60,629 nucleotides of DNA from Arenicellales bacterium (GCA_030066885.1 JASJAT010000051.1:1-60629), one strand, 5' to 3'. Positions 46,021 through 60,629 are shown, counted from the first letter of the stretch. Translations and numbers: made by a program. Notes: generated by a model from the letters alone, not told the origin.

Positions 46021-46309
46021 TGGCGCCCTCGGCAGGATTCGAACCTGCGACCTATCGCTTCTTACCACTTTAGCTTTCGCTAGTCATTGCTCGTTCGTGG
46101 TCTGGACTTTACCTTCACCCTAAGCAACGCTATTAGGTGCTGCCCGTCAAGTCTCTACACCTTCCTGCTTATTCAGGCTTGGCTCGGTATTGCCACCGTC
46201 GTTACACGCTGAGGTTTCACCGAATTTGAGCAGATTCACGCAAGAAGTTTCCTTCTTTGTGCCCATTTCAAATAGGAGGCGATTGCTCTATCCCCTGAGC
46301 TACGAGGGC
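46021..46309 (-). tRNA. tRNA-Arg(CCT) gene interrupted by a group I intron. Exons are 46309-46274 and 46060-46021.
   Basis: 5' exon is GCCCTCG-TA-GCTC-AGGGGATA-GAGC-A-ATCGC-CT-CCT. 3' exon is AA-GCGAT-AGGTC-GCAGG-TTCGAAT-CCTGC-CGAGGGC-G-CCA. Joined, they give a perfect 76-nt cloverleaf with all stems Watson-Crick. Confidence 0.85.
46061..46273 (-). ncRNA. Group I intron (IC3-like, tRNA-type), 213 nt, inserted after U36 of the anticodon.
   Basis: P1 places a U-G wobble at the 5' splice site (CCU|AU...AUGGG), and the terminal G precedes the 3' exon. There is a GAAA-capped hairpin AAGAAGGAAACUUCUU. Core strings CAAAUUCGGUGAAACCU, CCGAGCCAAGC, GAAGGUGUAGAGACUUGACGG and AGCGAAAGCU closely match the Azoarcus tRNA-Ile and Anabaena tRNA-Leu introns as I remember them. 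Confidence 0.8.
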
Positions 46310-46320
46310 GTTAAAGAAGA

Positions 46321-48864
46321 TTATATCAGCTCGGTCACGCTACTGTTGCCGGTACCGACTATGGGGATGCCAGTCAATTTCGAGGTGACCAAGGTGATGG
46401 CCCTAAGGTCTTCCGGTTCGATGTTGTACAGGACAGTTTTACCAGTGCAGCGGGCCATCATGGAAGCTTCACCGATATTGGCTTTGATCAGATTGATAAC
46501 AGCCGTACTTCTATCGTCTTCGTTTAAGTCGCTATTGAACACCAAACTTTCATTTTGAATTTCGCCGCCAGCTGCAATTCCAATGGCAGTACCTTGAACG
46601 ACTGCAACTGTGCCCAGCCCCAATATTTTGGCAGCGTCGGTGCCGGATCGAATACCTCCAAACCAGACCAGATCAATCTCCTCCTCTCTGTCCAGCTTCC
46701 TCAGTAGAGCGATCGCATCCCGTAACAAAGAAAAATCAGGCGCACCTTTCAGCTCCGCCCAAGGAGTGGTGATTGATCCGGAGCCATCCAGTAGCAACAC
46801 ATCAAGTGCTTGATCGAGTCCGTTTTGAACTGCCTTAGGTACGTCCATTGGATCAGAAACATAAATTCCTACGAGTTGACCACTATACGGACGTGCGGCA
46901 TTTATACTGGCCGGCAGATCGTGGGCAGAGTACAAAACGACCTCGGCCTTATGGCTGGGTGGAGTTGCTCGAGTAAGCAGTTGCCACCAGCGCCCATCAT
47001 CGGATAGGGGTTGTTGCCCAACGTAGGGGCTGTCCACCACCTTGAGTCCTTCGGCGACCGCCTGCCTGACTTCCACCGGTGTGCTGTCAAAACCCGTAAC
47101 CAGGAGAGGGTGTGAAATAGGTAGCCCTCGACCAACTTCAGTATCTACTTTGCATGCTTCCCGATAAGGATCAATTACCAAGCGAGACAGGTTCGCCGGT
47201 AGGAAAACAATGTCATCTAGACTGGCCGGTTTGTTATCAGGCACGGGATTTTCTCGAACTTCTAGCAAACAAGATAACATGGCGTGGTTTTTAGCTGCAT
47301 CAAGTGGATTAGTACGCGCCATTGAAAAAATGTGTTCGCGTTGTTGCACCGAGTAATCGGCAGAACCAGTTTCGGCGTCACACCGATAGCATCGAGCGGC
47401 TTCCTTAAGGGCAGTTTCACGACTGTAGGTTTCTTCGATCTCCGGGAACTGGATCGGATTGTCACCCAGCCCGAAGAATTTCGGATGTTGTTCCGGCAAT
47501 AATTCCCATTGCAAGTCCTGCGCCACTGGTACTCGGCGGGTGCGATAAGGGGTACGGTAAGGTAAAGGATGGTCATTACCTTCGAGGTAATGCTTGATAT
47601 AGTACGCTGCACGCTGCCCGTGGTGCATCGCCATCACAATGGTTGAACCTCCAAATGCTCCGTCACCTGCCGCGAATACTTTCGGATCTTTAGTGCGCAT
47701 GGTTTCCCATTCCGTTTTGACTCGATCCTTCAGCATCATGCCAAGATGATCTAACTCGTCGTTTTCGCCTTGTTGTCCGACCGCAGCGATCACCATGCCA
47801 CACCCGATTGAATGTTCACTTCCAGCGATCGGCACGGGCCGGCGACGTCCGTCTTCATCAGGTTCACCCAGATCAGTTCGCACGCACTTCAGCGACAATC
47901 CCTTGCCGTTTGCCTCAACCGCCACTTGCTGCGTGTTGTATAAGAATTCAATGCCTTCATCGACGGCACCCTTAAGTTCAATGGCACGCGCGGGTATTTC
48001 TTTCGGGCCTCTTCGATAAACCACAATAACGTGCTCACAATCGGGCAGGCGTTTGGCCACACGGCAGGCATCCATAGCGACGTCGCCACCCCCGACGACC
48101 ACCACGGTATGAGGTAGTTGTGGACGCTCACCGGCATTCACCCGACGAAGAAATCCCACCCCATCGACAACACGCTCGTCCTGTTCGCCCGGGACACCCA
48201 TTGCCTTACCCCACCAGGCGCCTATACAGAGTAAAACGGCGTCGTGCCTTTCCTTTAGTTCGTTGAGTTTGATATCCCGGCCTAAGGCTGTATTTAAATG
48301 TATGTCCAAGCCGGGACATTTCTGGTGTAAACGATCGATATCTTCGTCGATTATGCCCGGCGGCAAACGAAAGGCCGGTATGCCCCAGACCATCATGCCA
48401 CCTGGCCGGTCGGACATTTCATACACATCGACTTTGAAACCCGCTGTACTGAGGTCGTGGGCTGCAACTAGACCGGCCGGACCGGCACCAACAATGCCCA
48501 CCGACTGTTTACGTGTAACGGGACACGCATCCGGGGTCCAGGTCGCACCGAGTTTGTCCATGACATAACGCTTGAGATTACGGATCTGAACTGGACCGTC
48601 GCTGTCCGTTCGACGGCACGCCGGTTCGCAAGGTGCATCACATACCCGTCCACAAATGGAACTGAAAGGGTTGGTTGCAGTAATCGCTTCAAAAGCCTGT
48701 TCAAACTTTTGTTCCCAGATATAAGCAATATAGGAAGGGGCATCTGTTCCCACTGGACAGGCGACCTGACACGGTGCCGGCACGTAGTGACCCTGCCCCG
48801 TATCATCGACATACTCGCTCGGTGCATCCGGCATCAAGATTCTATTGATGTCATAGACTGCCAT
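46321..48864 (-). CDS. GltD-like NAD(P)H-dependent Fe-S flavoprotein fused to a degenerate GltB-FMN-type TIM-barrel domain (847 aa).
   Basis: N-terminal half has Cys clusters (PCQVACPVGTD..., CGRVCDAPCEPAC), two dinucleotide folds (VGIVGAGPAGL; VVVVGGGDVAMD) and FAAGD. The C-terminal 299 aa parallel MgsC-type FMN domains (LDDIVFLPANLSRLVI..., LLLDGSGS, FGGIRSGTDAAKILGLG) but lack their conserved catalytic strings. Confidence 0.75.
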   Translation of the reverse strand: MAVYDINRILMPDAPSEYVDDTGQGHYVPAPCQVACPVGTDAPSYIAYIWEQKFEQAFEAITATNPFSSICGRVCDAPCEPACRRTDSDGPVQIRNLKRYVMDKLGATWTPDACPVTRKQSVGIVGAGPAGLVAAHDLSTAGFKVDVYEMSDRPGGMMVWGIPAFRLPPGIIDEDIDRLHQKCPGLDIHLNTALGRDIKLNELKERHDAVLLCIGAWWGKAMGVPGEQDERVVDGVGFLRRVNAGERPQLPHTVVVVGGGDVAMDACRVAKRLPDCEHVIVVYRRGPKEIPARAIELKGAVDEGIEFLYNTQQVAVEANGKGLSLKCVRTDLGEPDEDGRRRPVPIAGSEHSIGCGMVIAAVGQQGENDELDHLGMMLKDRVKTEWETMRTKDPKVFAAGDGAFGGSTIVMAMHHGQRAAYYIKHYLEGNDHPLPYRTPYRTRRVPVAQDLQWELLPEQHPKFFGLGDNPIQFPEIEETYSRETALKEAARCYRCDAETGSADYSVQQREHIFSMARTNPLDAAKNHAMLSCLLEVRENPVPDNKPASLDDIVFLPANLSRLVIDPYREACKVDTEVGRGLPISHPLLVTGFDSTPVEVRQAVAEGLKVVDSPYVGQQPLSDDGRWWQLLTRATPPSHKAEVVLYSAHDLPASINAARPYSGQLVGIYVSDPMDVPKAVQNGLDQALDVLLLDGSGSITTPWAELKGAPDFSLLRDAIALLRKLDREEEIDLVWFGGIRSGTDAAKILGLGTVAVVQGTAIGIAAGGEIQNESLVFNSDLNEDDRSTAVINLIKANIGEASMMARCTGKTVLYNIEPEDLRAITLVTSKLTGIPIVGTGNSSVTELI

Positions 48865-50816
48865 TAGCTTGCCAGCACTTCAGACTGTGATTCGCTTCCT
48901 ACTGGACGATAGGGCAGTCCGGTGATAGCAGCTGCTTCCGGCGTCAGTGCAACCAGGTCACCACGATTGAGCTGTCTTACATCGTCGTAACCTAAGGCGT
49001 GTGTGATCGCCGCAATCTGCCAGCGTACAGACTCAAAGAAACGGTGGATGTTTTGTGCTTCGATTTCTGGTTTATAACGCTTTTCGTGGTTGGGATCCTG
49101 GGTGGCTATCCCGGTAACACATTGACCTACGTGGCACTGCATGCACGCAATACAGCCTCCGGCGATGATGACCGAGGTGCCAAAACCGATTGCGTCCGCC
49201 CCGAGGCAAAGCCCCTTGATTGCATCGACACCGTCCCGCATGCCGCCCATTAGCACAATCTGCGTATCCTGACGGCGTCCAATTTCCGCCAAAGCTTCCT
49301 CGGCTTCAATAATCGCCGCCAATGTTGGAATACCAACAAAATCGATGACTTCCGAACTGCCGGCCCCGGTCGAGCCCTGCATTCCGTCTAGCTCTATAAA
49401 ATCGAATCCATCCTTGACCGCGATCTTAATATCGTCGCGTACCCGTCCGGCGCCCAACTTTACGCTCACCGGAAGACGATAACCGGTGGCTTCGCGGAAC
49501 TCTTCAACTTTAATGACGAGATCATCAGCACCCAGGATATCCGGATGGCGAGACGGTGACCGGAGGTCGATACCGGCCGGGATACCTCGAATATCGGCCA
49601 GCTCTTTGGTGACTTTCTTGGCCATCAGTTGCCCCCCTAGCCCGGGTTTCGCACCTTGTGAAATATATATCTCGAGCCCATCGGCCCGTTTCATATCATG
49701 GATATTCCATCCCAGCCTGCCGCCCAGGCACTGGAAAATAAGTTGTTTGGCAGCGCTCCGTTGAGCATCGCTCATACCCCCTTCGCCGGTGTTTTCAGCG
49801 ATGTCCGACATCGCCGAAGCCAGGCCTATGGCGTGCTTGGTAGACCGGCTGAGCGCACCATAGCTCATCGGCGATACCATTACCGGCATGCTGAGTTTAA
49901 GTGGGTTGGCGCCGTTCAGCCCGCCAATCTCGGTGTACATGTGGACCTTCGATATCACATCGGCTGAATCGTTTATTCTGGATAGGTCTTTCGCGAACGC
50001 TAGGTCGGACAGATGGGGGAGTGCACGGGCAGTACCGTAGCCACGAATGCGGTAACGGCCGCTTTGGGATTTTATGTGTATGTCTTCTTGTACTTTGGGA
50101 TTCCAGTAAGGGGAAGCACCAGAAAAAGTAAAGAACGGAATACTGCGCATCTGTCTTTCCGGTGATCCGTAACGCAATTTTTGGCCTGCGTTGACGATCT
50201 TCTGAAAATTGCCTTTAAACGGGATTTCGTAGCGGTCGAGAAATTCACGCACGCTATCGTGCTCGGCCTCGGTCATGTCCGTCAGCTTGGCATCGGAACC
50301 GAGGTCCTGAACTTTTCCGCCAACAAAGATTTCACCGCCTGTCATATCCTCCCCGACACGCTCCCCGGAATCGCCAAGGATTATGATTCTGCCGCCATAC
50401 AGCATATAGCCGGCCATGAAGTTCGCGTTACCTGCACACAATAAAGTCCCCGCCTTCATAACCTGTCCTGCGCGCGACCCCATATTGCCCTTTATGATGA
50501 TCTCGGCCCCACGGATACCGATGGCGGGAATAGCCCCGGCGTTGCCACCGACGACGACCGTCCCGCTGTAAATGTTATCTCCCAACCCCCACCCAACGTT
50601 GTTGTCGATATAGAAAGTCGCCTGATCGGTGAGACCCGCACAGAAATAACCTGCGGATCCTTTTACGTGAACGCTTATGGGCGAGGTCAACCCGACACCG
50701 ATATGGTGCCGGGCATCGGGGTTGATTACTTCTACGTCTTCGCCTGCTTCGCCATAGTTACGGATTTGTTCGTTGGCATCGCGGACGGGTATTTGCGCTA
50801 GATCGATCGTGACCAC
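48864..50816 (-). CDS. Fusion of a GXGXG (GltB C-terminal beta-helix) domain and an FMN-binding glutamate-synthase-type domain (650 aa).
   Basis: N-terminus has the reiterated G-x-G pattern (GSAGYFCAG...GGNAGAIPAIG...GNMGSRAG...GDSGERVG). C-terminus has SPMSYGALS, GEGG, ISQGAKPGLGG, LDGMQGSTGAG, GGMRDG and CIACMQCHVGQCVTG. TAATG overlap with the downstream gene. Confidence 0.85.
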   Translation of the reverse strand: MVTIDLAQIPVRDANEQIRNYGEAGEDVEVINPDARHHIGVGLTSPISVHVKGSAGYFCAGLTDQATFYIDNNVGWGLGDNIYSGTVVVGGNAGAIPAIGIRGAEIIIKGNMGSRAGQVMKAGTLLCAGNANFMAGYMLYGGRIIILGDSGERVGEDMTGGEIFVGGKVQDLGSDAKLTDMTEAEHDSVREFLDRYEIPFKGNFQKIVNAGQKLRYGSPERQMRSIPFFTFSGASPYWNPKVQEDIHIKSQSGRYRIRGYGTARALPHLSDLAFAKDLSRINDSADVISKVHMYTEIGGLNGANPLKLSMPVMVSPMSYGALSRSTKHAIGLASAMSDIAENTGEGGMSDAQRSAAKQLIFQCLGGRLGWNIHDMKRADGLEIYISQGAKPGLGGQLMAKKVTKELADIRGIPAGIDLRSPSRHPDILGADDLVIKVEEFREATGYRLPVSVKLGAGRVRDDIKIAVKDGFDFIELDGMQGSTGAGSSEVIDFVGIPTLAAIIEAEEALAEIGRRQDTQIVLMGGMRDGVDAIKGLCLGADAIGFGTSVIIAGGCIACMQCHVGQCVTGIATQDPNHEKRYKPEIEAQNIHRFFESVRWQIAAITHALGYDDVRQLNRGDLVALTPEAAAITGLPYRPVGSESQSEVLAS

Positions 50817-51709
50817 GTGGCATAAGTTCCCGGTAAGGGTTCTTTAGTCTGCAGTGCTTGACCTGGAAACAATCTGTTGAGCGACACCTCTTCAGAAGCG
50901 ACCGCTACCAAGTCCTCGTTCTCGTACATCACCATGGGTTTAGCCGCTAATCGATCTTTGGCATAACCGATTTCATTCGCAGTAGACACCAAGAAAGAAA
51001 AAGTTCCATCGAGATCGTCTATGGATGTTCGCAAGGCTGCCTTCAATGTTATCCCTTGTGACAGCTTATCGGCGAGATACACTGCGATGAGTTCACTGTC
51101 GTTGTCGGTGGTGAACTCAAAGCCTCGCCGTTCCAATCTTCGCCGCATCTTCCAGTAATTGGTGATCTGTCCATTGTGCACAATAGCGATGTCGGCAAAC
51201 CCTGTTGCCCAGAATGGATGGGATGCCTCCGGCTTTACATCGGATTCCGTGGCCAGACGAACATGGCCGAGCCCGTGACTGCCTTGAAATTTGTTGACTT
51301 CATACCGCTTGTCGACATCGTCAGCACTTCCGACGTCCTTTACGATTTCTAAACTGGCACCAATAGATATTACTTTTGCGGCGTGTTCGATAGCGTAGGA
51401 GAACTTTTGTAAGTTGCCGGTGAAATCAACAATCGCCCGGTAGTTGTTACCGATTACTTCTTCTTCAACTATGGTCGCGTGGTGTTCGGCTAGGGCTTGG
51501 CGAATGCGTTGGATCGAATCATCGGTTTCTTCGTCTTCCCCCACGAAAAATCTCAGCCGGAGCTGACCGGTGTGGGCTGCTTCATATAGTGCAAATCCAG
51601 TGGAATCCGGTCCGCGATGCTGACAACCATCGAGCATATTGATCAACGCCTTTCCGGTTGTGAGCTCTGGTGTGTCGTGTTTGAAGAGAATTCCTGCGAT
51701 ACCACACAT
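50798..51709 (-). CDS. Class II (Ntn) glutamine amidotransferase, GltB N-terminal-domain-like.
   Basis: MCGIAG N-terminal nucleophile Cys, HRGPDSTGFAL, GHVRLATES, VHNGQITNY. Paralog of the plus-strand gene at 57739. Confidence 0.88.
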   Translation of the reverse strand: MCGIAGILFKHDTPELTTGKALINMLDGCQHRGPDSTGFALYEAAHTGQLRLRFFVGEDEETDDSIQRIRQALAEHHATIVEEEVIGNNYRAIVDFTGNLQKFSYAIEHAAKVISIGASLEIVKDVGSADDVDKRYEVNKFQGSHGLGHVRLATESDVKPEASHPFWATGFADIAIVHNGQITNYWKMRRRLERRGFEFTTDNDSELIAVYLADKLSQGITLKAALRTSIDDLDGTFSFLVSTANEIGYAKDRLAAKPMVMYENEDLVAVASEEVSLNRLFPGQALQTKEPLPGTYATWSRSI

Positions 51710-52048
51710 ACCGTTTATACGACCACTGCTCGTTTTTTAGGTGTCACAAATATAGTGTACCTAAGCCGGCAGAATCAACAACGGCGCTAACTCGGCTGAA
51801 AGTATGCGGCGCTTCGCTAAAAATCGGTAAAAACTCGTACTTTTATACAGATCAAATAAAGACTAATATGCGCAACTGCAAAACTGAACCGCAATGGATG
51901 GGCACACAGAGCGAGTTCAGAAACAAACTCTCTATACGCGCATCACGCGGTTTCTACTTGCGACGGGGATCACCTCATGATGAGGTGGTCGTTGAAGTAA
52001 TGCTTTTAAAAAGTCAATTAGAACCCTTTTTTGGGGAGGAGGTTCCAA

Positions 52049-53410
52049 GTGGATAACGAACTAGCTGCGCTAGGCATTATCTTCACCGAGTTCTACTACT
52101 GGCTGACCGTAGTGATCATGTTTTTCATTCACGTCGGTTTCTGTATGTACGAGGTCGGCGTATCAAGGCACAAGAACCACATGCATACACTGATGAAGAA
52201 CACCATGCTGATTCCTCTGGTGACGGTGACATTCTTCTATTTTGGCTGGTATATCTACTTTGCCTGGCCAAACGGACCATTCATTAACGGCCCCGTGGTC
52301 GAAGCGCCCAATGCTGTGCCTTGGAGTCAAGTCATGGGGCCCAGTATGGGTGGCCAAGATGACCTTCACGCCGGTTGGGCCCGGATCAATGGCGTGTTCT
52401 GGGCAGCCTTCTTATTGTTTTCCTGGACAGCGGCATCCATTGTGTCCGGTTCAGTCATAGAGCGCATTAGATCGGCTGGGTTCTGGATCTTGGCCGTCGC
52501 CATCGGTTCCGTGTTTTGGATTATCGACGCGGCATGGGGTTGGCATGCTGGCGGCTGGATGGTTGCGCTATGGGGTTACCATGATGCCTATGCCAGTGGA
52601 GTCATCCACGCCATCGCTGGGGGCTTCGGACTGGGTGTATTGTTGGTGCTGGGGCCGCGAATTGGTAAGTTTGCACCCGACGGCACACCTCGTACCATTC
52701 ATCCGCGTAATCCTTGGTTGGTGACTATCGGATTGTTCCTGATATATACCGGATTCTGGGGATTCTACGTGGCGTGCAATGTGCCCATGTGGGATGTTCA
52801 AGAAGGAGACGGTGTGTTCTTTTCCGCCACCAACATCTATCTTGGGCCCACTACGTTGAGTGCCATCACGGTGAACTTCCTGATGTCTCTATCCGGCGGT
52901 TTGCTGATGGGTTATCTGATTTCAAAGGGCGATGCTTTTTGGACCTACTCATCGGGGCTGGCCGGGATTATTGCCGCGTCCGCAGGAAACGATCTATATC
53001 ACCCAATTCAAGCGATGATCATCGCCGCGGTTGGTGTTGTCTTCATGTATAAGGTCCATCACTGGGCCGAGCGCACATTGAAAGTGGATGATGCCGTTGG
53101 CGCGGTGGCTGTTCACGGTTACGCTGGTTTCTTCGGTGTGGTTATTGCCGGATTCGTGCTTTGGGGTTATCCGTCATCACCAGACGACTCCTTTGCGGCG
53201 ATCAATCCACTCGGTCAATTCGCGGGTGCCATCGTCATGTTCTTCGTTTTAGGGTTCATTCCTGGCTGGGTTCTGGCCAAGATTTTGAACGGTGCGGGCA
53301 TGTTGCGCATACCGAAAGAAATCGAGTTGATGGGTTTAGATGCGGCTGCAGCGCAAGACATTGCAGATGATGAGGCAGCCATCATCAAGGCCGAGAAAGA
53401 AGCTGTTTGA
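52049..53410 (+). CDS. amt: Ammonium (or methylammonium) transporter, Amt family, divergent type.
   Basis: ~11 TM helices, with HAIAGGFGLGVLLVLGPRIGKF and DDAVGAVAVHGYAGFFG Amt-like segments. The GTG at 52049 is preceded by GGAGGAGG. The track TTG at 52031 is less likely. Confidence 0.8.
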   Translation: MDNELAALGIIFTEFYYWLTVVIMFFIHVGFCMYEVGVSRHKNHMHTLMKNTMLIPLVTVTFFYFGWYIYFAWPNGPFINGPVVEAPNAVPWSQVMGPSMGGQDDLHAGWARINGVFWAAFLLFSWTAASIVSGSVIERIRSAGFWILAVAIGSVFWIIDAAWGWHAGGWMVALWGYHDAYASGVIHAIAGGFGLGVLLVLGPRIGKFAPDGTPRTIHPRNPWLVTIGLFLIYTGFWGFYVACNVPMWDVQEGDGVFFSATNIYLGPTTLSAITVNFLMSLSGGLLMGYLISKGDAFWTYSSGLAGIIAASAGNDLYHPIQAMIIAAVGVVFMYKVHHWAERTLKVDDAVGAVAVHGYAGFFGVVIAGFVLWGYPSSPDDSFAAINPLGQFAGAIVMFFVLGFIPGWVLAKILNGAGMLRIPKEIELMGLDAAAAQDIADDEAAIIKAEKEAV

Positions 53411-53846: not shown

Positions 53847-54563
53847 TCACTGTCCCAGTAAATCCGCTTTAGCCAACGCCAGGTGTTCGCGGATGGCCTT
53901 TTCCGCTTCATCGACATCACGGCGGGAAATCGCGGTGAACAGGTTGCGGTGTTGCTGATTGTATTGTCTTATCTTATGGGGGGTTAGAACTTTATCCTTC
54001 CGCGCCACCCACTGCGCATGGCCGCGTACTTCATTGATATGTCGATACAACCACAGCATCAAAGGGTTGCGAGCACTTTCCGCTAATGACATATGAAAGC
54101 GTTCATCGTGGGTGGAAAAGGTCTCAGGATCGGTAGTCTCCTTTTCCACACGGAGCAGCGCCTCTTCCATTCGTTCCATGTCCTGAGCGTTGGCATTTAC
54201 TACGGCCAACCTGGCCATAGCTGGTTCGACTGCGATACGCACATCGATTAACTCTAGCGGCGAGGTAAGTTCGGTGATGTCTTCGTGGTCCGCGTAGCCG
54301 CGGTAACATACGAAGCTACCGCTACCCGCTCGACGCGTGACCAGATTCATCTGTTCCAATTGACGTAACGCGGATCGGATGGTGCCTCTAGCTACACCGA
54401 ACTGTTTCGCCAGTTGTCGTTCCGAGGGCATACGTTCGCGGTAAGTGAACAGGCCATCAACAATGGCGCCGCGCAATCTGGTCGCGACCGCGTTAGCTCC
54501 GCCCACTATACCGTCGGGTAAATTTTCAATCGCGGGATTTATCCTTTCTACGCTTGTCGCCAT
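53847..54563 (-). CDS. GntR family transcriptional regulator, FadR/FCD subfamily.
   Basis: HTH SERQLAKQFGVARGTIRSALRQLEQMNLV and a helical FCD-like C-terminus. The start is set at the ATG at 54563. Confidence 0.82.
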   Translation of the reverse strand: MATSVERINPAIENLPDGIVGGANAVATRLRGAIVDGLFTYRERMPSERQLAKQFGVARGTIRSALRQLEQMNLVTRRAGSGSFVCYRGYADHEDITELTSPLELIDVRIAVEPAMARLAVVNANAQDMERMEEALLRVEKETTDPETFSTHDERFHMSLAESARNPLMLWLYRHINEVRGHAQWVARKDKVLTPHKIRQYNQQHRNLFTAISRRDVDEAEKAIREHLALAKADLLGQ

Positions 54564-54799
54564 GCGTTCATCTTCTGGTTCTAAATTGGTATAATTTGAG
54601 CAAACTATACACCGCCAGTTTTCAGGACGCAATTGTTGAGACAAATGAACTTAGATTGCCCATAACGCACTGTATTATAAGTAGATAATCTCCATTGTTC
54701 GACGTAAATTCGAACCTCCAAACAATCCTGTACTTTCTACCCGAAACGTGTACCATATACTGCGAAACATTCGATTACTGGTATAAAAGTGGTGTAAGC

Positions 54800-56137
54800 A
54801 TGGCCATTCCAACACATGTGTCCTTCCTCATTATCGGCGCTGGTATTCACGGACTCAGCACGGCATATCATTTAGCGCGTGAGCTTAAAAGGACGGGCCG
54901 AGGTGATGGTCAAGATATCTTGGTCATCGATAAGACCTCGATTGCAGCGGGTGCGTCGGGCATCGCATGCGGGGTAATCAGAAACAACTATTACCAACCT
55001 GCCATGCGTGAATTGATGGCGCACAGTGTGAGCATTTGGGAAAGTGACCGTGAAACCTACGCTTATCATCCTGTCGGTTATATGCAGATCAGCCCGGAGT
55101 GCATGCGAGGCGACGTGGCGACTATTGCACAACAGCAAAAAGAGATCGGCTATGAGTCTGTTTTTGTTGAAGGCAAAAAGGACTCCGACAAGTACATGAA
55201 ATCGATCTTTGAGGATTGGCAGGCACAGAACATCACCTCCGTGTTGCACGAAAAGCGCGGTGGTTATGCCAACAACACTAAAAGTTTGTATGGTCTCGCC
55301 GACAAAACGGAAGCTGAGGGTGTGCGTATATTAACCGGTTTGAAGGTAATCGGATTCGAGCGTAATGGCCAAGGTGTAAGTGCAGTGAAGACGGAAAGGG
55401 GTGATATCAAGTGCGATCTGGTCGTGGTGGCCGTCGGCCCATGGGCAAAGACCGTCTGGGATATGTTAGAGCTGCCAAAGGCCGTTGCAATCAAAGGTAG
55501 GGACGGGGTCATGCATGATGATATTCCGATGTGGGTCTACTGGTCACTTCAGGAGGGTACGTTAGGGGTGGATCCGGACATGCAAAAAACCAACTCGGGC
55601 GAGTTTCCACCTGTTGTCCACGTGGATAGCGATGCGCCGCTTTACTCAGATGAAGATGGATCGTTGATTACCGACCAGATGTGGGGAATTTACTACAAAC
55701 CGGATTTTAACTTCGGTGGTATTCAGGGCGGGGCAGCCCCGATAAAAGTGAAGACCGAACCCGACAAGGTTGCGGTGGATCCTTACGGTCCCGATTCTCC
55801 GGAGTTTGTCGTCGGTCCGGAATTCGCGCACATGTGGTGCTCCGCCTTGGCGCACTGTCAAAAGCGTTTCGAGAAAAAAATGGACAGCTACAAGAACGAA
55901 CCTTCTGGTGGGATCGGGGCGTTCACTCCAGACAGCTTTCCAGTTTTCGATATGTTTTACGGTAACGTTTATTTGATTGCGGATTCCAATCATGGTTACA
56001 AGATGATTGGCGTCGGCGAGTTAGTGGCAAAAGAAATCTGTGGCACCAGCAGTAGTTTACTGGAACCGTTTCGTTTTACGCGTTATGCGGAAGGTAAGCT
56101 ACATCCGGTTTCGAATAGTCCATTTCCATGGAGTTAA
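54800..56137 (+). CDS. FAD-dependent oxidoreductase, sarcosine oxidase beta (SoxB)/MgdA-like.
   Basis: FLIIGAGIHGLSTAYHLA dinucleotide motif followed by AAGASGIACGVIRNNY, resembling the SoxB N-terminus. 445 aa from the ATG at 54800. Confidence 0.7.
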   Translation: MAIPTHVSFLIIGAGIHGLSTAYHLARELKRTGRGDGQDILVIDKTSIAAGASGIACGVIRNNYYQPAMRELMAHSVSIWESDRETYAYHPVGYMQISPECMRGDVATIAQQQKEIGYESVFVEGKKDSDKYMKSIFEDWQAQNITSVLHEKRGGYANNTKSLYGLADKTEAEGVRILTGLKVIGFERNGQGVSAVKTERGDIKCDLVVVAVGPWAKTVWDMLELPKAVAIKGRDGVMHDDIPMWVYWSLQEGTLGVDPDMQKTNSGEFPPVVHVDSDAPLYSDEDGSLITDQMWGIYYKPDFNFGGIQGGAAPIKVKTEPDKVAVDPYGPDSPEFVVGPEFAHMWCSALAHCQKRFEKKMDSYKNEPSGGIGAFTPDSFPVFDMFYGNVYLIADSNHGYKMIGVGELVAKEICGTSSSLLEPFRFTRYAEGKLHPVSNSPFPWS

Positions 56138-56170
56138 ATGAAAACGACATAACCCTAAAGGGAGGAGAAA

Positions 56171-57640
56171 ATGACAGATCTTGAGTCTTACGTAAACGCG
56201 CCAGGCCGTGCCGAATTAGTCAAGCAAGTTCGGGAAAAAATAAACGAATTGGGCGTGACTTATATTTACTACCAGTTTATTTCTGTAACAGGCCGCATAG
56301 TAGGTAAAGGCATCCCGGCTGACCACTGGGAGCGCACCGCGGAACGAGGTTTCCAACTGGTTTACGGTTCTACCGCGAATCTTTTTATCGACCGGCATGG
56401 GGACTATATCGGTTACGGTCCGGAAGCCGCGGAGCTCGTTGGCATCCCCGATCCGGAAACCTTTTGCCAATTACCTTGGGATAAGCGTGTTGGACGAGTC
56501 TATTGCGTATGTTTTCGCAATCGCGAAGAGCGTGAAAATCCGGGTGGACATCTCACTTCCGATTGCCGCGGTAACCTGAAGCGATTTGACCGGGAGTTCA
56601 AACAGAAATACAACGGATTACACCTGCGTGCAGGTACCGAACCGGAGATGATGTGGCTAAAGCGGGGTGAAGACGGAAAACCGGCCGGCGGCTTTTCCAA
56701 TCCTTACTGTTATCACATCGATCAATTTGAATCTTTACGACCGGTATTCATGCAGGTCATTGAATACGCCAATGCAATGGGGCTGGATATGATTCAAGGT
56801 GATCATGAAGATGCGCCTGGTCAACTGGAACTTAACTGGTGGTTCGATGACGTAGTGCGCAATGCGGATCGTTTATCCACCTACCGTCAAATCTGTGCCC
56901 AGGTCGCCCGGGAGAACAATCTGATAGCCTGTTTTATGTCAAAGCCTTTTATGGGTGTATCTGCATCTGGCTGTCATACCAACATTTCACTGTGGCGCGG
57001 TGGCGAGGAGCGATTGAATACTCTTCATCAGGACCCGCTACCGGGTATGCCGCACAACTTTACTTACCTTGATGGGGGAGAAAACACTTTTATGCCGGAT
57101 ACGGACGACCCGCAACTGCCTGGTAAGGTCGGTTTACAAGCCATTGGCGGCATCATGGCCCACTTAGGCGCACTGACGGCCATCGGTTGCTCTACTGTTA
57201 ATTCTTATCGCCGACTATGGGACACGGGTTTTTGGGCACCTGTATTTGCAGACTGGGGTTATCAGAACCGCACTACCGGCATGCGCGTGTCCGCACCAGG
57301 ACGATTCGAGTACAGGGCGGTGGATTCCATGGTCAACCCCTATTTGATGGGCGCCGCATTGCTCAAAGCTTTTGAGGACGGGATCGATAATGATTTGGAT
57401 CCAGGTAAGCCGGAGGAGCGCAACATCTACCAAGCCATGGAGGCCGGCAAGCAAGTGAAAAAACTGCCTATGTCCCTCGGTGAAGCTTTAGATAGATTGG
57501 CCAACGATGAAGTCATTAAATCGTCTATGCCCGATGAAATGTATAAGGTTTACCACTGGTATAAGAATGATGAGTTTGAAAAGTTCATGGCAACGGTGAC
57601 CGAGTGGGATTTGGAAACCTATATAGATTGCTTGCCATGA
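56171..57640 (+). CDS. gmaS: Glutamine synthetase family protein, candidate gamma-glutamylmethylamide (gamma-glutamyl-amine) synthetase.
   Basis: GS catalytic-domain strings EPEMMW, GDHEDAPGQLELNW and SGCHTNISLW. It lies directly upstream of the GATase/GXGXG/FMN trio, the glnT-glxBCD = gmaS-mgsABC arrangement. The substrate is inferred from context only. Confidence 0.6.
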   Translation: MTDLESYVNAPGRAELVKQVREKINELGVTYIYYQFISVTGRIVGKGIPADHWERTAERGFQLVYGSTANLFIDRHGDYIGYGPEAAELVGIPDPETFCQLPWDKRVGRVYCVCFRNREERENPGGHLTSDCRGNLKRFDREFKQKYNGLHLRAGTEPEMMWLKRGEDGKPAGGFSNPYCYHIDQFESLRPVFMQVIEYANAMGLDMIQGDHEDAPGQLELNWWFDDVVRNADRLSTYRQICAQVARENNLIACFMSKPFMGVSASGCHTNISLWRGGEERLNTLHQDPLPGMPHNFTYLDGGENTFMPDTDDPQLPGKVGLQAIGGIMAHLGALTAIGCSTVNSYRRLWDTGFWAPVFADWGYQNRTTGMRVSAPGRFEYRAVDSMVNPYLMGAALLKAFEDGIDNDLDPGKPEERNIYQAMEAGKQVKKLPMSLGEALDRLANDEVIKSSMPDEMYKVYHWYKNDEFEKFMATVTEWDLETYIDCLP

Positions 57641-57738
57641 CGTCGTGTACTGAGTGTTTGCAGGACGTCTGTATGGATCAGAGGCAGAGCGCGATACGCT
57701 TTCGGTTGCAACTTTAGGTATGTTGGAGGACAAAGAGC

Positions 57739-58674
57739 ATGTGTGGTATTGCTGGATTGATTCATCGAGGTGAGACTTCGGACATAGGATCCGAACTGAC
57801 TTCGATGTTACAAGCTTTGAAGCACCGCGGCCCGGACTCCACGGGTTTTGCACTTTACGGAGAACCTACGGCCAGTCAATACGTGATTCGATTTAAAGTG
57901 GCGGAACAGGAAGACATGCGCAAGGGATTTCGGATACACGAGGAAGTGAAACATCGTAAACAACAGGTCGATGGTCGTATGGAAGAACTCGGTGTGAGCA
58001 TTATCGCGCAAGAGCAGGTAACCGAGTACGCACATCGATACCATTTCAGCTACGGCGGTGATATGAAACGTTTGGCCGACTACATCGAGGACATTGAAGG
58101 TGCCGAGATTCTGTCTATTGGTAGTGCACTGGAACTTATCAAGGATCTGGGCGACGCCAATACCGTTTCTGATCAATATGGGTTAGATGGCTTCAACGGA
58201 ACACATGCGATAGGTCATACCCGTATGGCGACGGAATCCGATGTGGATATACGCTCGGCACACCCGTACTGGGCGTATCCGTTCAACGATGTTGCTGTAG
58301 TGCACAACGGCCAGCTGACTAATTATTGGAACTCCCGCCGTGAATTGGAGCGGCGTGGCCATCGTTTCATGTCTAATTGCGATTCTGAATTGATCGCGGT
58401 GTATTTAGCCGACCGTATGGATCGGGGTGAGGATCTACAGGAATCCATGCATCGTTCTATAAACGAATTGGATGGTGTTTTTACCTACGTAGTTGCTACT
58501 GGTGACAAGTTGGGGATGGCCAAGGATGTGATGGCAGCAAAACCGATGGTGTTATATGAGAGCGACGATTTTGTTGCCCTGGCATCCGAGGAAGTCGCCA
58601 TCCGCAGCATATTTCCCAATGAGATTGATACCTACGACCCATATGAGGGGGAGGTTCGGGTATGGCAGAGCTGA
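57739..58674 (+). CDS. mgsA: Class II glutamine amidotransferase-like subunit (MgsA/GlxB-like).
   Basis: MCGIAG, HRGPDSTGFAL, GHTRMATES, VHNGQLTNY. Confidence 0.7.
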   Translation: MCGIAGLIHRGETSDIGSELTSMLQALKHRGPDSTGFALYGEPTASQYVIRFKVAEQEDMRKGFRIHEEVKHRKQQVDGRMEELGVSIIAQEQVTEYAHRYHFSYGGDMKRLADYIEDIEGAEILSIGSALELIKDLGDANTVSDQYGLDGFNGTHAIGHTRMATESDVDIRSAHPYWAYPFNDVAVVHNGQLTNYWNSRRELERRGHRFMSNCDSELIAVYLADRMDRGEDLQESMHRSINELDGVFTYVVATGDKLGMAKDVMAAKPMVLYESDDFVALASEEVAIRSIFPNEIDTYDPYEGEVRVWQS

Positions 58675-59504
58675 AGCAAAAAGACTCCCATGCTATGGGA
58701 CTACACGAAGAGCAGTTGGTCGGTCGGACGCAACAGATATTCTTTTCGGCCGAAGAAGAAGAGGGTTTTACCTACCCGGGGGCATTTGAAGTGGATTTTG
58801 ACAGGTCGACTGCATTCGATGCTGCCAATATGGAGATAAAAGACATCAACCTTCGGATACGACAGTTGATGAGCGAAGGTTATGGTGACATTACTGTACA
58901 GAACCCGGGCGCTAAACATTCCCTCGGCGTAGGTATTCTCAATCGATTGAAACTGACTTTTGATGGCAGTCTGGGTTATTTCGGTGTTGGTTTGATCGAC
59001 GGGCCCAATGTCCGGATAACAGGGCGTGTCGGTTGGTCGTGTGCCGAAAACATGATGGCAGGCACGGTGGTAGTAGAAAAGAATGCGGGATCGACCTTCG
59101 GTGCTGCCTTGCGTGGCGGTGATCTGGTTTGTAAGGGTGACGTGGGTAGCCGAACCGGAATTGATCAAAAAGGTGGCACTATAATTGTCGGTGGCCGCAC
59201 CGGTGCCTTTAGTGGTTTTATGATGCAACGCGGCCGCATGATCATACTCGGTGATGCTGGAATCAACCTCGGCGATTCCATGTACGACGGCACGATATAT
59301 GTGGCTGGCAAGATCGCAGGTCTGGGTGTCGATGCGGTAGAAGGAGAGATGACAGAGCTCGATACGAGATGGTTGCAGAGTAAGTTGACTCTGTACGGAC
59401 TTGAATCCCCCAACGGCGTGGCAAACATGACCAAGATTGTCGCTGGAAAGCAATTGTGGAACTACGACAACCTCGAGCCCACGGAAAAGAAACTGGTCTT
59501 GTAA
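58662..59504 (+). CDS. mgsB: GXGXG-motif subunit (MgsB/GlxC-like).
   Basis: GSLGYFGVG...GRVGWSCAE...KNAGSTFGA...GDVGSRTG...GRTGAFSG...GDAGINLG beta-helix repeats. Confidence 0.7.
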   Translation: MAELKQKDSHAMGLHEEQLVGRTQQIFFSAEEEEGFTYPGAFEVDFDRSTAFDAANMEIKDINLRIRQLMSEGYGDITVQNPGAKHSLGVGILNRLKLTFDGSLGYFGVGLIDGPNVRITGRVGWSCAENMMAGTVVVEKNAGSTFGAALRGGDLVCKGDVGSRTGIDQKGGTIIVGGRTGAFSGFMMQRGRMIILGDAGINLGDSMYDGTIYVAGKIAGLGVDAVEGEMTELDTRWLQSKLTLYGLESPNGVANMTKIVAGKQLWNYDNLEPTEKKLVL

Positions 59505-59520
59505 AGGCGAGGCATTAGCT

Positions 59521-60629
59521 ATGAACGAAATGACTAAACCCAAACTCAAGCGCGATACCAGTCGCTTGGGTAGCAGTTACATTTTTCCACCCGAAGTGAT
59601 CGATGACATCCACATCAAGGCGGAACTTGGGCGTTATCGAATGCGGGGTTTTTCGATATTTAAGAAGATCCCAAGCTGGGACGACTTAACTTTTCTACCG
59701 GGTACATTGACTCGATTTGTTATCGAAGGATATAGAGAGAAGTGTGTCACTAAAACAATAATTGGCCCGCGTGCCAAACGACCCCTAGAATTGGACATCC
59801 CGGTATACATTACCGGTATGAGTTTTGGTGCGTTGTCTTACGAAGCGAAGACTGCCTTGGCTCGAGGTGCGACGATGGCGGGTACTGCTACCTGTTCTGG
59901 GGAAGGCGGTATGATCCCGGATGAGCGGCGATATTCGAGTAAATGGTTTTATCAGTGTATTCAATCTCGTTACGGGTTTAATCCGCATCACCTGCGGCTG
60001 GCCGATGGATGCGAGTTTTTTATCGGACAGGGATGTAAGGTCGGTCTAGGCGGTCATTTGATGGGTCAGAAGGTAACCGATCAAGTGGCGGAAATGCGCT
60101 CACTCCCTGCCGGGATTGATCAACGATCACCGGCCCGCCATCCAGACTGGTTAGGCCCGGACGACCTCGCGTTAAAAGTCCAGGAGATTCGTGAGGCGAC
60201 TAACTGGGAAATACCGATTCAGTTAAAACTGGGTGCCGCGCGTGTATACGACGACGTCCGTATGGCGGCGAAAACAGATCCTGATTCAATTTACATCGAC
60301 GGTATGGAGGGAAGTACAGGGGCCGGGCCTCACCTTGCGACTGAGGATACGGGTGTACCGGGGATCGCAGCTATACGACAGGCACGTAAAGCGCTGGATG
60401 ACGTGGGTAAGAGCGGCGAAATTTCGCTGGTGTACGCCGGGGGGATCCGTAACGGTGGTGATCTGGCCAAGGCGTTGGCGCTGGGTGCCGATGCGGTAGC
60501 CATCGGCCATTCCGCCATGATGGCACTGAACTGCAACAAGGACATACCCGAGGCCAATTTTCAAGAGGAGATCGGTGTAGAGCCGGGCTACTGCTACCAT
60601 TGTCATACCGGTCGTTGCCCGGTCGGTGT
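59521..60629 (+). CDS. mgsC: FMN-binding glutamate-synthase-family subunit (MgsC/GlxD-like). The 3' end is cut by the window, and the ORF is not in the track because it has no stop.
   Basis: My translation from the ATG at 59521 is MNEMTKPKLKRD...FLPGTLTRFVIEGYRE...ITGMSFGALS...GEGGM...IGQGCKVGLGG...IDGMEGSTGAGP...YAGGIRNGGDLAKALALGADAV...CYHCHTGRCPVG. The frame stays open to position 60629. Confidence 0.75.
   Translation, partial: MNEMTKPKLKRDTSRLGSSYIFPPEVIDDIHIKAELGRYRMRGFSIFKKIPSWDDLTFLPGTLTRFVIEGYREKCVTKTIIGPRAKRPLELDIPVYITGMSFGALSYEAKTALARGATMAGTATCSGEGGMIPDERRYSSKWFYQCIQSRYGFNPHHLRLADGCEFFIGQGCKVGLGGHLMGQKVTDQVAEMRSLPAGIDQRSPARHPDWLGPDDLALKVQEIREATNWEIPIQLKLGAARVYDDVRMAAKTDPDSIYIDGMEGSTGAGPHLATEDTGVPGIAAIRQARKALDDVGKSGEISLVYAGGIRNGGDLAKALALGADAVAIGHSAMMALNCNKDIPEANFQEEIGVEPGYCYHCHTGRCPVG

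Follow-up and report, generated by a model that had tools for sequence, protein, structure and literature searches.

The window analyzed here is a 60,629-nt stretch of DNA from an Arenicellales bacterium (GCA_030066885.1 JASJAT010000051.1:1-60629). Its minus strand carries, at positions 46321-51709, three adjacent genes for glutamate-synthase-like proteins, which we refer to as the trio. The subunit 1 gene (P0001; 303 aa, beginning MCGIAG) spans 50798-51709, the subunit 2 gene (P0002; 650 aa, GTG start) spans 48864-50816, and the subunit 3 gene (P0003; 847 aa, ATG start) spans 46321-48864. The first two overlap by 19 nt, in the sequence GTGGTCACGATCGATCTAG, and the second and third by 1 nt, in the sequence TAATG, where the ATG of subunit 3 lies across the stop codon of subunit 2. 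The trio genes are translationally coupled. A preliminary description of the locus had reported these open reading frames (ORFs) and overlaps, and both were confirmed in the sequence.

Domain organization and active-site motifs

Pfam searches supported the domain calls of the preliminary description, namely an N-terminal nucleophile (Ntn) amidotransferase, a fusion of GXGXG and FMN/Fe-S domains, and a GltD-like flavoprotein. Subunit 1 matches GATase_6/7 (E = 3e-19) and is predicted to be a class-II (Ntn) amidotransferase, with Cys1 in MCGIAG, the Arg in GHVRLATES (residues 148-156), the Asn-Gly in VHNGQITN (177-184) and the Asp in NDSELIA (203-209). In subunit 2, GXGXG (residues 33-172, E = 4e-14) precedes Glu_synthase (304-610, E = 1e-91; window 48987-49907, minus strand), the inverse of the order in GltB. 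None of the trio proteins gave a Pfam match to Glu_syn_central at E ≤ 0.01.

The synthase-site motifs of subunit 2 include the GEGG glutamate (343-348), QGAKPGLGGQ (386-397) and the Arg of ADIRG (407-411). When aligned to Synechocystis GltS (1LLW/1OFD), the site residues correspond to E903, Q969, K972, Q978 and R992, and all five are kept. The Fe-S motif (residues 555-566; window 49119-49154, minus strand) reads CIACMQCHVGQC and contains four cysteines in the spacing C-x2-C-x2-C-x4-C; the three of GltB (C-x5-C-x4-C) are retained and a fourth is inserted. This four-Cys motif is conserved in 41 of 49 orthologous ORFs.

The N-terminal part of subunit 3 (residues 1 to ~500; 47365-48864, minus strand) constitutes a predicted GltD-like NAD(P)H reductase module. 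It matches Fer4_20 (E = 2e-24) and Pyr_redox_2 (E = 3e-28) over residues 30-416, has six invariant cysteines at positions 32, 36, 71, 75, 79 and 83, and contains the FAD and NAD(P)H folds (GIVGAGPAGL and VVGGGDVAMDA...VYRRG, respectively). The top Foldseek matches of its predicted fold are the NfnABC, NfnB, GltD and dihydropyrimidine dehydrogenase (DPD) reductases, with E values of 1e-33 to 1e-23. The AlphaFold2 model was used solely for the GltD-like fold and for a confident beta/alpha domain at the C-terminus.

That C-terminal part (residues ~500-847; 46321-47364, minus strand), the last ~350 aa of which lay beyond the earlier domain calls, comprises a linker with an invariant CYRCD followed by a degenerate Glu_synthase-type, MgsC-like FMN barrel. 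The last ~350 aa align with the profile of the FMN domain over its second half (hhalign 98.5%, E = 3.6e-15). The barrel retains an FMN-phosphate-type motif, FGGIRSGTDAAK, and an MgsC-like MMARCTGKT...EPEDL tail, but it no longer has the GEGG glutamate or the QGAKPG loop, nor the cysteines of the Fe-S motif. We also considered that it might be the equivalent of the GltB central domain, an idea set aside on the basis of the profile comparison, which identifies it as a derivative of the MgsC-like FMN domain. The C-terminal domain defines a narrow family, with 359 clusters at 50% identity among 1.8 billion representatives.

Four further cysteines outside the GltD-like module are invariant among 25 homologues: C492 and C495 (CYRCD), C571 (YREAC) and C806 (ARCTGKT), in the region of residues 492-810 (window 46435-47391, minus strand). 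The YREKC and ARACGKT cysteines are present in MgsC as well and are absent from the FMN domain of subunit 2. An extra metal or Fe-S site divided between the paralogous barrels may be encoded by these residues. The C-terminal domain also stands at the end of longer proteins (P0127, 1486 aa; P0131, 1031 aa; and one at L018 3670-7083), and some lineages may have a fusion of subunits 2 and 3.

Conservation and distribution

Full-length orthologs of the trio genes are present in a relative (G008) with 79-94% amino-acid identity. Rates of nonsynonymous substitution (dN) between the two are 0.07-0.15, synonymous substitution (dS) is saturated, and the genes are under purifying selection. Nearly all orthologues retain Cys1 together with the oxyanion and Asp motifs, and their Fe-S motif and catalytic loop are likewise intact. 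The dN/dS comparison and the active-site motifs kept in the orthologues rule out pseudogenes or chance ORFs.

Full-length homologues of subunit 3, with 63-89% identity, occupy the top 120 matches of a protein search and so number at least 120. With two peptide patterns from the C-terminal domain, we located the trio in 406 species genomes or more, which come from six phyla and are almost without exception metagenome-assembled genomes (MAGs). The best 80 of these 406, which are the loci covered by the neighborhood counts given below, are MAGs of Alpha- and Gammaproteobacteria, Planctomycetota, Latescibacterota, Gemmatimonadaceae and Acidimicrobiia. On contigs of Planctomycetaceae and other MAGs, the same three genes recur with lengths of ~300, 651 and 845 aa and coupled junctions, and across phyla the three are always found together with junctions coupled or overlapping. 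The split and fused layout is the defining, strictly conserved architecture of a family present in hundreds of species. The fusions, described in the preliminary account as unusual, are not peculiar to this genome. None of 400 random Pseudomonadota genomes contains the trio, our searches found no cultured host, and outside uncultured marine lineages the trio is rare.

None of the three proteins passes the cut-off of an NCBIfam model; the best GltD family models fall short, and PRK11750 gives 161 bits where its cut-off is 1047. Literature searches returned no paper describing the trio architecture, and no curated family names it. In databases the proteins are automatically annotated as 'FAD-dependent oxidoreductase' or 'glutamate synthase' (gltB/gltD-like). 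The preliminary description had raised the prospect that these would turn out to be ordinary, widely annotated architectures of a characterized enzyme; the architecture is indeed widespread and routinely annotated by automatic means, but the trio belongs to no characterized enzyme.

As the preliminary description had suggested checking, we looked for canonical gltBD in this genome and found two complete gltB-gltD operons, on contigs C151 (419-6337) and C44 (2930-9014). A canonical GltB of roughly 1500 aa was likewise found in 12 of the 12 other trio genomes examined. The trio is not the housekeeping glutamate synthase (GOGAT), and the possibility that it is the sole GOGAT of its hosts was rejected on the presence of canonical GltB in all trio genomes examined.

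Relationship to MgsABC and other known systems

The closest relatives of the trio are the components of the N-methylglutamate synthase MgsABC (= GlxBCD; EC 2.1.1.21; Methyloversatilis universalis, Methylobacterium extorquens), genes for which also occur in the window. Subunit 1 is 43% identical to the window's MgsA-like protein; the GXGXG part of subunit 2 is 38% identical to the MgsB-like protein and its FMN part 41% identical to the MgsC-like protein. Identities between the trio parts and the GltBs of this genome are 29-37%.

We computed a maximum-likelihood tree of 39 FMN domains, among them 12 from trio loci and 13 from canonical GltB, with no archaeal sequences. The 12 trio sequences form a single clade with a Shimodaira-Hasegawa-like approximate likelihood-ratio test (SH-aLRT) value of 100. 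This clade and that of MgsC lie within a clade of 96% SH-aLRT support, with the 13 canonical GltBs and a 542-aa type, represented in this genome by a Glu_synthase-domain protein on contig C27 and forming its own clade, standing apart. The GltB and trio clades are separate, each with 100% support. The trio clade has a long stem and very short internal branches across phyla, and it is sister to the MgsC clade rather than nested inside it.

The group consensus sequences of trio and Mgs have signatures in common: PGLGG (PGEGG in GltB), SP.RHPD and the fourth Fe-S cysteine. The Fe-S motif of the Mgs clades also has four cysteines, with an insert, and that of the 542-aa type is C-x5-C-x4-C like canonical GltB. 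From the four-Cys motif, Mgs-type enzymes may hold [4Fe-4S] instead of [3Fe-4S].

We interpret the trio as a probable descendant of MgsABC/GlxBCD that gained a dedicated electron-input subunit. The two resemble each other in their Ntn amidotransferase, GXGXG and FMN/Fe-S subfamilies (38-43% identity), in the four-Cys Fe-S motif and loop signatures, in the grouping of the FMN domain with MgsC, and in genomic partners, which include GmaS/GlnT, mgdABCD-like genes and folD. They differ in that the trio fuses the B and C parts into one 650-aa protein, adds an 847-aa GltD-like NAD(P)H reductase with a degenerate barrel, whereas MgsABC is without a reductase subunit, and stands as a separate clade with a long stem and very slow evolution.

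The same five kinds of module make up GltBD (EC 1.4.1.13; Azospirillum brasilense, PDB 1EA0/2VDC/6S6S; B. subtilis, 7MFM), and Cys1 and the 2-oxoglutarate-site residues are conserved in the trio. By analogy, the electron path expected in the trio would be the same, NAD(P)H-FAD-[4Fe-4S]-Fe-S-FMN. However, GltB is one ~1500-aa chain arranged as GATase - central - FMN - GXGXG, whereas the trio distributes the parts over three genes, in permuted order (GXGXG before FMN) and with no detected Glu_syn_central. Its Fe-S motif has four cysteines versus three, E975 is replaced by Leu, and it falls outside the GltB clade and always coexists with canonical GltB. The preliminary statement that the locus is neither classical gltBD nor the reductase-less MgsABC holds.

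Large-subunit domains on separate polypeptides are also characteristic of the archaeal-type split GOGAT (GltB1, GltB2, GltB3). Archaeal GOGAT sets generally consist of three unfused genes; a ferredoxin domain is usual in their FMN subunit, a GltD-type partner is not known from the operon, and the GXGXG-FMN fusion of the trio departs from this unfused layout. The resemblance to the archaeal type drawn in the preliminary description was not upheld; in a comparison that contained no archaeal sequences, the closest relatives were MgsABC, with 38-43% identity and a joint clade of 96% SH-aLRT.

Finally, DPD and the large subunits of Nfn/Stn likewise use a GltD-like FAD/2x[4Fe-4S] module to pass NAD(P)H electrons to a partner, and DPD has this module followed by an FMN TIM barrel in one chain. 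The barrel of the trio differs in that it is derived from Glu_synthase/MgsC, is not like dihydroorotate dehydrogenase, and looks catalytically dead; the trio is also without a C-terminal 8Fe ferredoxin domain. The proposal that subunit 3 by itself is a DPD-like reductase whose GltD-like module feeds its own FMN barrel, with incidental gene linkage, gains something from this parallel in domain order and from the GGxRSGTD FMN-phosphate-type motif kept in the barrel, but it is very improbable in view of the missing GEGG, QGAKPG catalytic loop and Fe-S cysteines, the constant company and coupled or overlapping junctions of the three genes across phyla, and the existence of 1486- and 1031-aa proteins that end in the C-terminal domain.

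Association with the N-methylglutamate pathway

The genes of the N-methylglutamate route have been defined (PMC5023235), and its synthase has been proposed to act in a GOGAT-like manner on gamma-glutamylmethylamide (GMA) and 2-oxoglutarate, with a redox partner not yet identified (PMC6237917). To survey the genes next to the trio, we clustered the ORFs of the 80 loci. The commonest neighbor, directly downstream and co-directional at 17 loci, encodes a 435-aa protein that scores 675 bits against TIGR03105 (cut-off 470), the type III glutamine synthetase (GS) family that includes GmaS (family roles in PMC5023235 and PMC6237917). Searches by tblastn placed a GlnT/GmaS-type ligase within 6 kb of the trio at 21/80 loci, and three loci share the row trio-glnT-folD-orf-DAO-soxB-like-soxD-like.

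At the level of whole genomes, the TIGR03105 cut-off is exceeded in 11/13 trio genomes versus 44/401 random Pseudomonadota (11%; Fisher P = 6e-9), a comparison between 13 non-independent trio genomes and a control set chosen without matching for habitat. The two trio genomes without a match above the cut-off are the present assembly, which is 89% complete, and its fragmented relative.

In four genomes, which belong to three phyla, the trio is accompanied by gmaS and mgd genes while an MgsC-type gene is absent, and in three of them mgdABCD is complete. A complete Latescibacterota chromosome and a Gemmatimonadaceae MAG carry soxB-soxD-soxA-soxG-glnT ~4 kb from the trio, and a second Latescibacterota genome carries this row well away from its trio. 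In the fourth, a Planctomycetaceae genome, soxB-glnT-amt stands at a contig start, with the rest of any mgd row out of view. In the random sample, an MgsC-type gene is present in 37 of the 44 GlnT-positive genomes and adjoins glnT wherever coordinates were compared; in the other 7, glnT is stand-alone and mgd genes are absent. In the genomes examined, mgd-linked gmaS is thus accompanied by an Mgs-type enzyme, and the trio is the sole candidate for this role in the four lineages.

At 12 loci (L019, L022, L025, L037, L041 and seven others, all alphaproteobacterial), the trio is followed by a co-directional LarA-like gene (Lar_N + LarA_C, ~428 aa). Often, genes for a major facilitator superfamily (MFS) transporter and a protein similar to FAD-type glycerol-3-phosphate dehydrogenase come next.

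Proposed reaction

On balance, we consider it probable that the trio forms a single complex within the glutamate-synthase superfamily and that this acts as a gamma-glutamylmethylamide:2-oxoglutarate methylaminotransferase driven by NAD(P)H, a reading that draws on sequence relationships and gene context. The preliminary description had left the choice between a genuine NAD(P)H-GOGAT and a reductive amine-transfer enzyme; the evidence favors the latter and narrows the amine to that of the N-methylglutamate pathway.

In such a complex, NAD(P)H would reduce the FAD of the GltD-like module in subunit 3, and electrons would pass through the Fe-S clusters of this subunit into subunit 2, reaching its four-Cys cluster and FMN, by analogy with GltBD. 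The Cys1 amidotransferase of subunit 1 would hydrolyze a gamma-glutamyl amide and presumably channel the amine to the FMN site, where amine and 2-oxoglutarate would condense and the resulting imine be reduced. Gene context suggests that the amide is most likely GMA made by GmaS, in which case the reaction would be GMA + 2-oxoglutarate + NAD(P)H -> N-methylglutamate + glutamate. Acting with GmaS and N-methylglutamate dehydrogenase, the enzyme would bring methylamine nitrogen into glutamate with no free ammonia. The degenerate barrel of subunit 3, with its catalytic loop and Fe-S cysteines lost, is most likely a structural docking domain, and the GXGXG helix would be structural, as in GltB.

Genomic surroundings in the Arenicellales assembly

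Upstream of the trio, a divergent intergenic spacer of 321 nt (51710-52030) separates it from amt (Ammonium_transp; 52031-53410, plus strand), which is the sole Amt found in this assembly. The divergent arrangement noted in the preliminary description is thus true here but does not generalize, as amt adjoins the trio at 3/80 loci, namely those of the three closest relatives. A Planctomycetaceae Amt (L131 3182-4495) that is 61% identical directly adjoins gmaS-mgdA, which hints at a subfamily of Amt that imports methylammonium, and the window Amt may import methylammonium as well. The spacer contains one sigma-70-like match (51778-51749, minus strand), no more than expected by chance. We found no sigma-54/NtrC site (TGGCAC-N5-TTGCW-like) in 51710-52030, and matches across the window are at chance level; sigma-54/NtrC control of the trio was rejected for want of a consensus in the spacer.

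Beyond amt, an island at 53847-60627 holds gntR/FCD (minus strand), a DAO-family FAD oxidoreductase, a divergent GS-like ligase and the MgsA-, MgsB- and MgsC-like genes. These last begin at 57739, ~6 kb from the trio, and the MgsC-like gene is truncated by the contig end. The divergent ligase (56171-57640, plus strand) reaches only 293 of the 470 bits required by TIGR03105, and its identity to bona fide GlnT/GmaS is 27-28%. The corresponding region of G008 is syntenic with the window, and its row runs on as mgsC-soxB-soxD-soxA-soxG (mgdABCD-like)-eamA followed by a bona fide GlnT/GmaS. Because the row of G008 continues past the same point, the island of the window is cut by the contig end; and because G008 has both the divergent ligase and a true GlnT, the island holds two different gamma-glutamyl ligases.

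On the other side of the trio, a tRNA-like gene with halves split by ~210 nt was seen by eye at 46021-46309 (minus strand). It starts 11 nt downstream of the subunit 3 stop codon, on the same strand as the trio, and no terminator-like site lies between the two. Neither ARAGORN nor an Rfam search at gathering thresholds called it.

Discussion

Several observations weigh against a methylaminotransferase. MgsABC-like genes are already present in this genome and in G008, and the trio is therefore at least partly redundant in both. The 2-oxoglutarate/glutamate-binding residues E903, Q969, K972 and R992 are identical across the GltB, Mgs and trio groups, and hence the site residues do not discriminate between ammonia and methylamine; at the Q978 position the trio has Gln like GltB, and MgsC has His. 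Some TIGR03105 members are reported to act as glutamine synthetases, and the enrichment of this family was measured against the unmatched control described above. No N-methylglutamate pathway gene lies within 6 kb of the trio at 59/80 loci, and the other neighbors vary (the LarA-like gene, transporters, a helix-turn-helix-cupin regulator). The AlphaFold2 model of subunit 3 is of moderate quality, with a predicted local distance difference test (pLDDT) value of 65 and values <50 in the linker and at both termini. No RNA run contains the locus, which was seen only in DNA runs from marine and sediment metagenomes.

Some of these points favor a second glutamine-dependent NAD(P)H-GOGAT isoenzyme, which would convert glutamine and 2-oxoglutarate to two glutamates and might, for example, recapture ammonia of the N-methylglutamate pathway or, when nitrogen is limiting, act with Amt. 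The trio has every GOGAT module and catalytic residue, the GltB-like Gln at Q978 among them; a divergent amt adjoins it here and in the three closest relatives; pathway genes are not nearby in most loci; and the family of the downstream ligase is formally named type III glutamate-ammonia ligase. We nevertheless regard this isoenzyme as unlikely, though it is the foremost competing explanation. Every trio genome examined has canonical GltB, with two complete gltBD operons in the present one, and the spacer between trio and amt offered no sigma-54/NtrC-type promoter. The trio parts appear to derive from Mgs, not GltB, and a GOGAT function would leave the four genomes with gmaS and mgd genes without any N-methylglutamate synthase.

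A quite improbable variant keeps the chemistry and changes the substrate to another or broader range of amines, making the trio a reductive gamma-glutamyl-alkylamide (or free alkylamine):2-oxoglutarate aminotransferase that would form other N-alkyl-glutamates from, e.g., ethylamine, ethanolamine or polyamine-derived amides. Such breadth would suit the varied neighbors (an ABC transporter with an SBP_bac_8 binding protein, a pyridoxal-phosphate enzyme, LarA-like and MFS genes), as well as the second, divergent GS-like ligase of the island (293 bits vs 470 for TIGR03105) and its lone DAO-family oxidase. However, the partners that recur across phyla are GlnT/GmaS, soxBDAG-like genes (mgdABCD) and folD, and they count against a broader amine because they are the signature of the one-carbon N-methylglutamate route.

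With the methylaminotransferase as the favored reading, one can picture a 'methylamine GS-GOGAT cycle' in many uncultured bacteria of the sea and of sediments, spanning at least six phyla, in which methylamine nitrogen would never become free ammonia; we put this forward tentatively, as a proposal about as open to doubt as to belief and leaning slightly toward doubt. GmaS would capture methylamine with ATP, the trio would move it reductively onto 2-oxoglutarate, and N-methylglutamate dehydrogenase would hand the one-carbon (C1) unit to folate, leaving glutamate. A division of labor is possible, with MgsABC serving the use of methylamine as carbon or energy source and the trio, beside the sole amt of this assembly, serving nitrogen assimilation.

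In the ocean, much nitrogen and C1 carbon is present as methylated amines, and bacteria process methylamine mainly through the N-methylglutamate pathway. How the central enzyme of this pathway works, and which reductant it uses, has yet to be settled (PMC6237917), and a conserved form with a built-in NAD(P)H reductase makes the question of the N-methylglutamate synthase reductant directly testable. The trio is also a clean case of subunit fusion combined with duplication of a catalytic barrel and its decay into a probable scaffold. Automatic gltB/gltD-like annotation of the trio may skew inferences on nitrogen assimilation from metagenomes. If our reading is true, the trio represents a new enzyme activity, gamma-glutamylmethylamide:2-oxoglutarate aminotransferase (reducing), and it would hint at the kind of electron donor used by N-methylglutamate synthases, with the four-Cys cluster shared with MgsC as the entry point.

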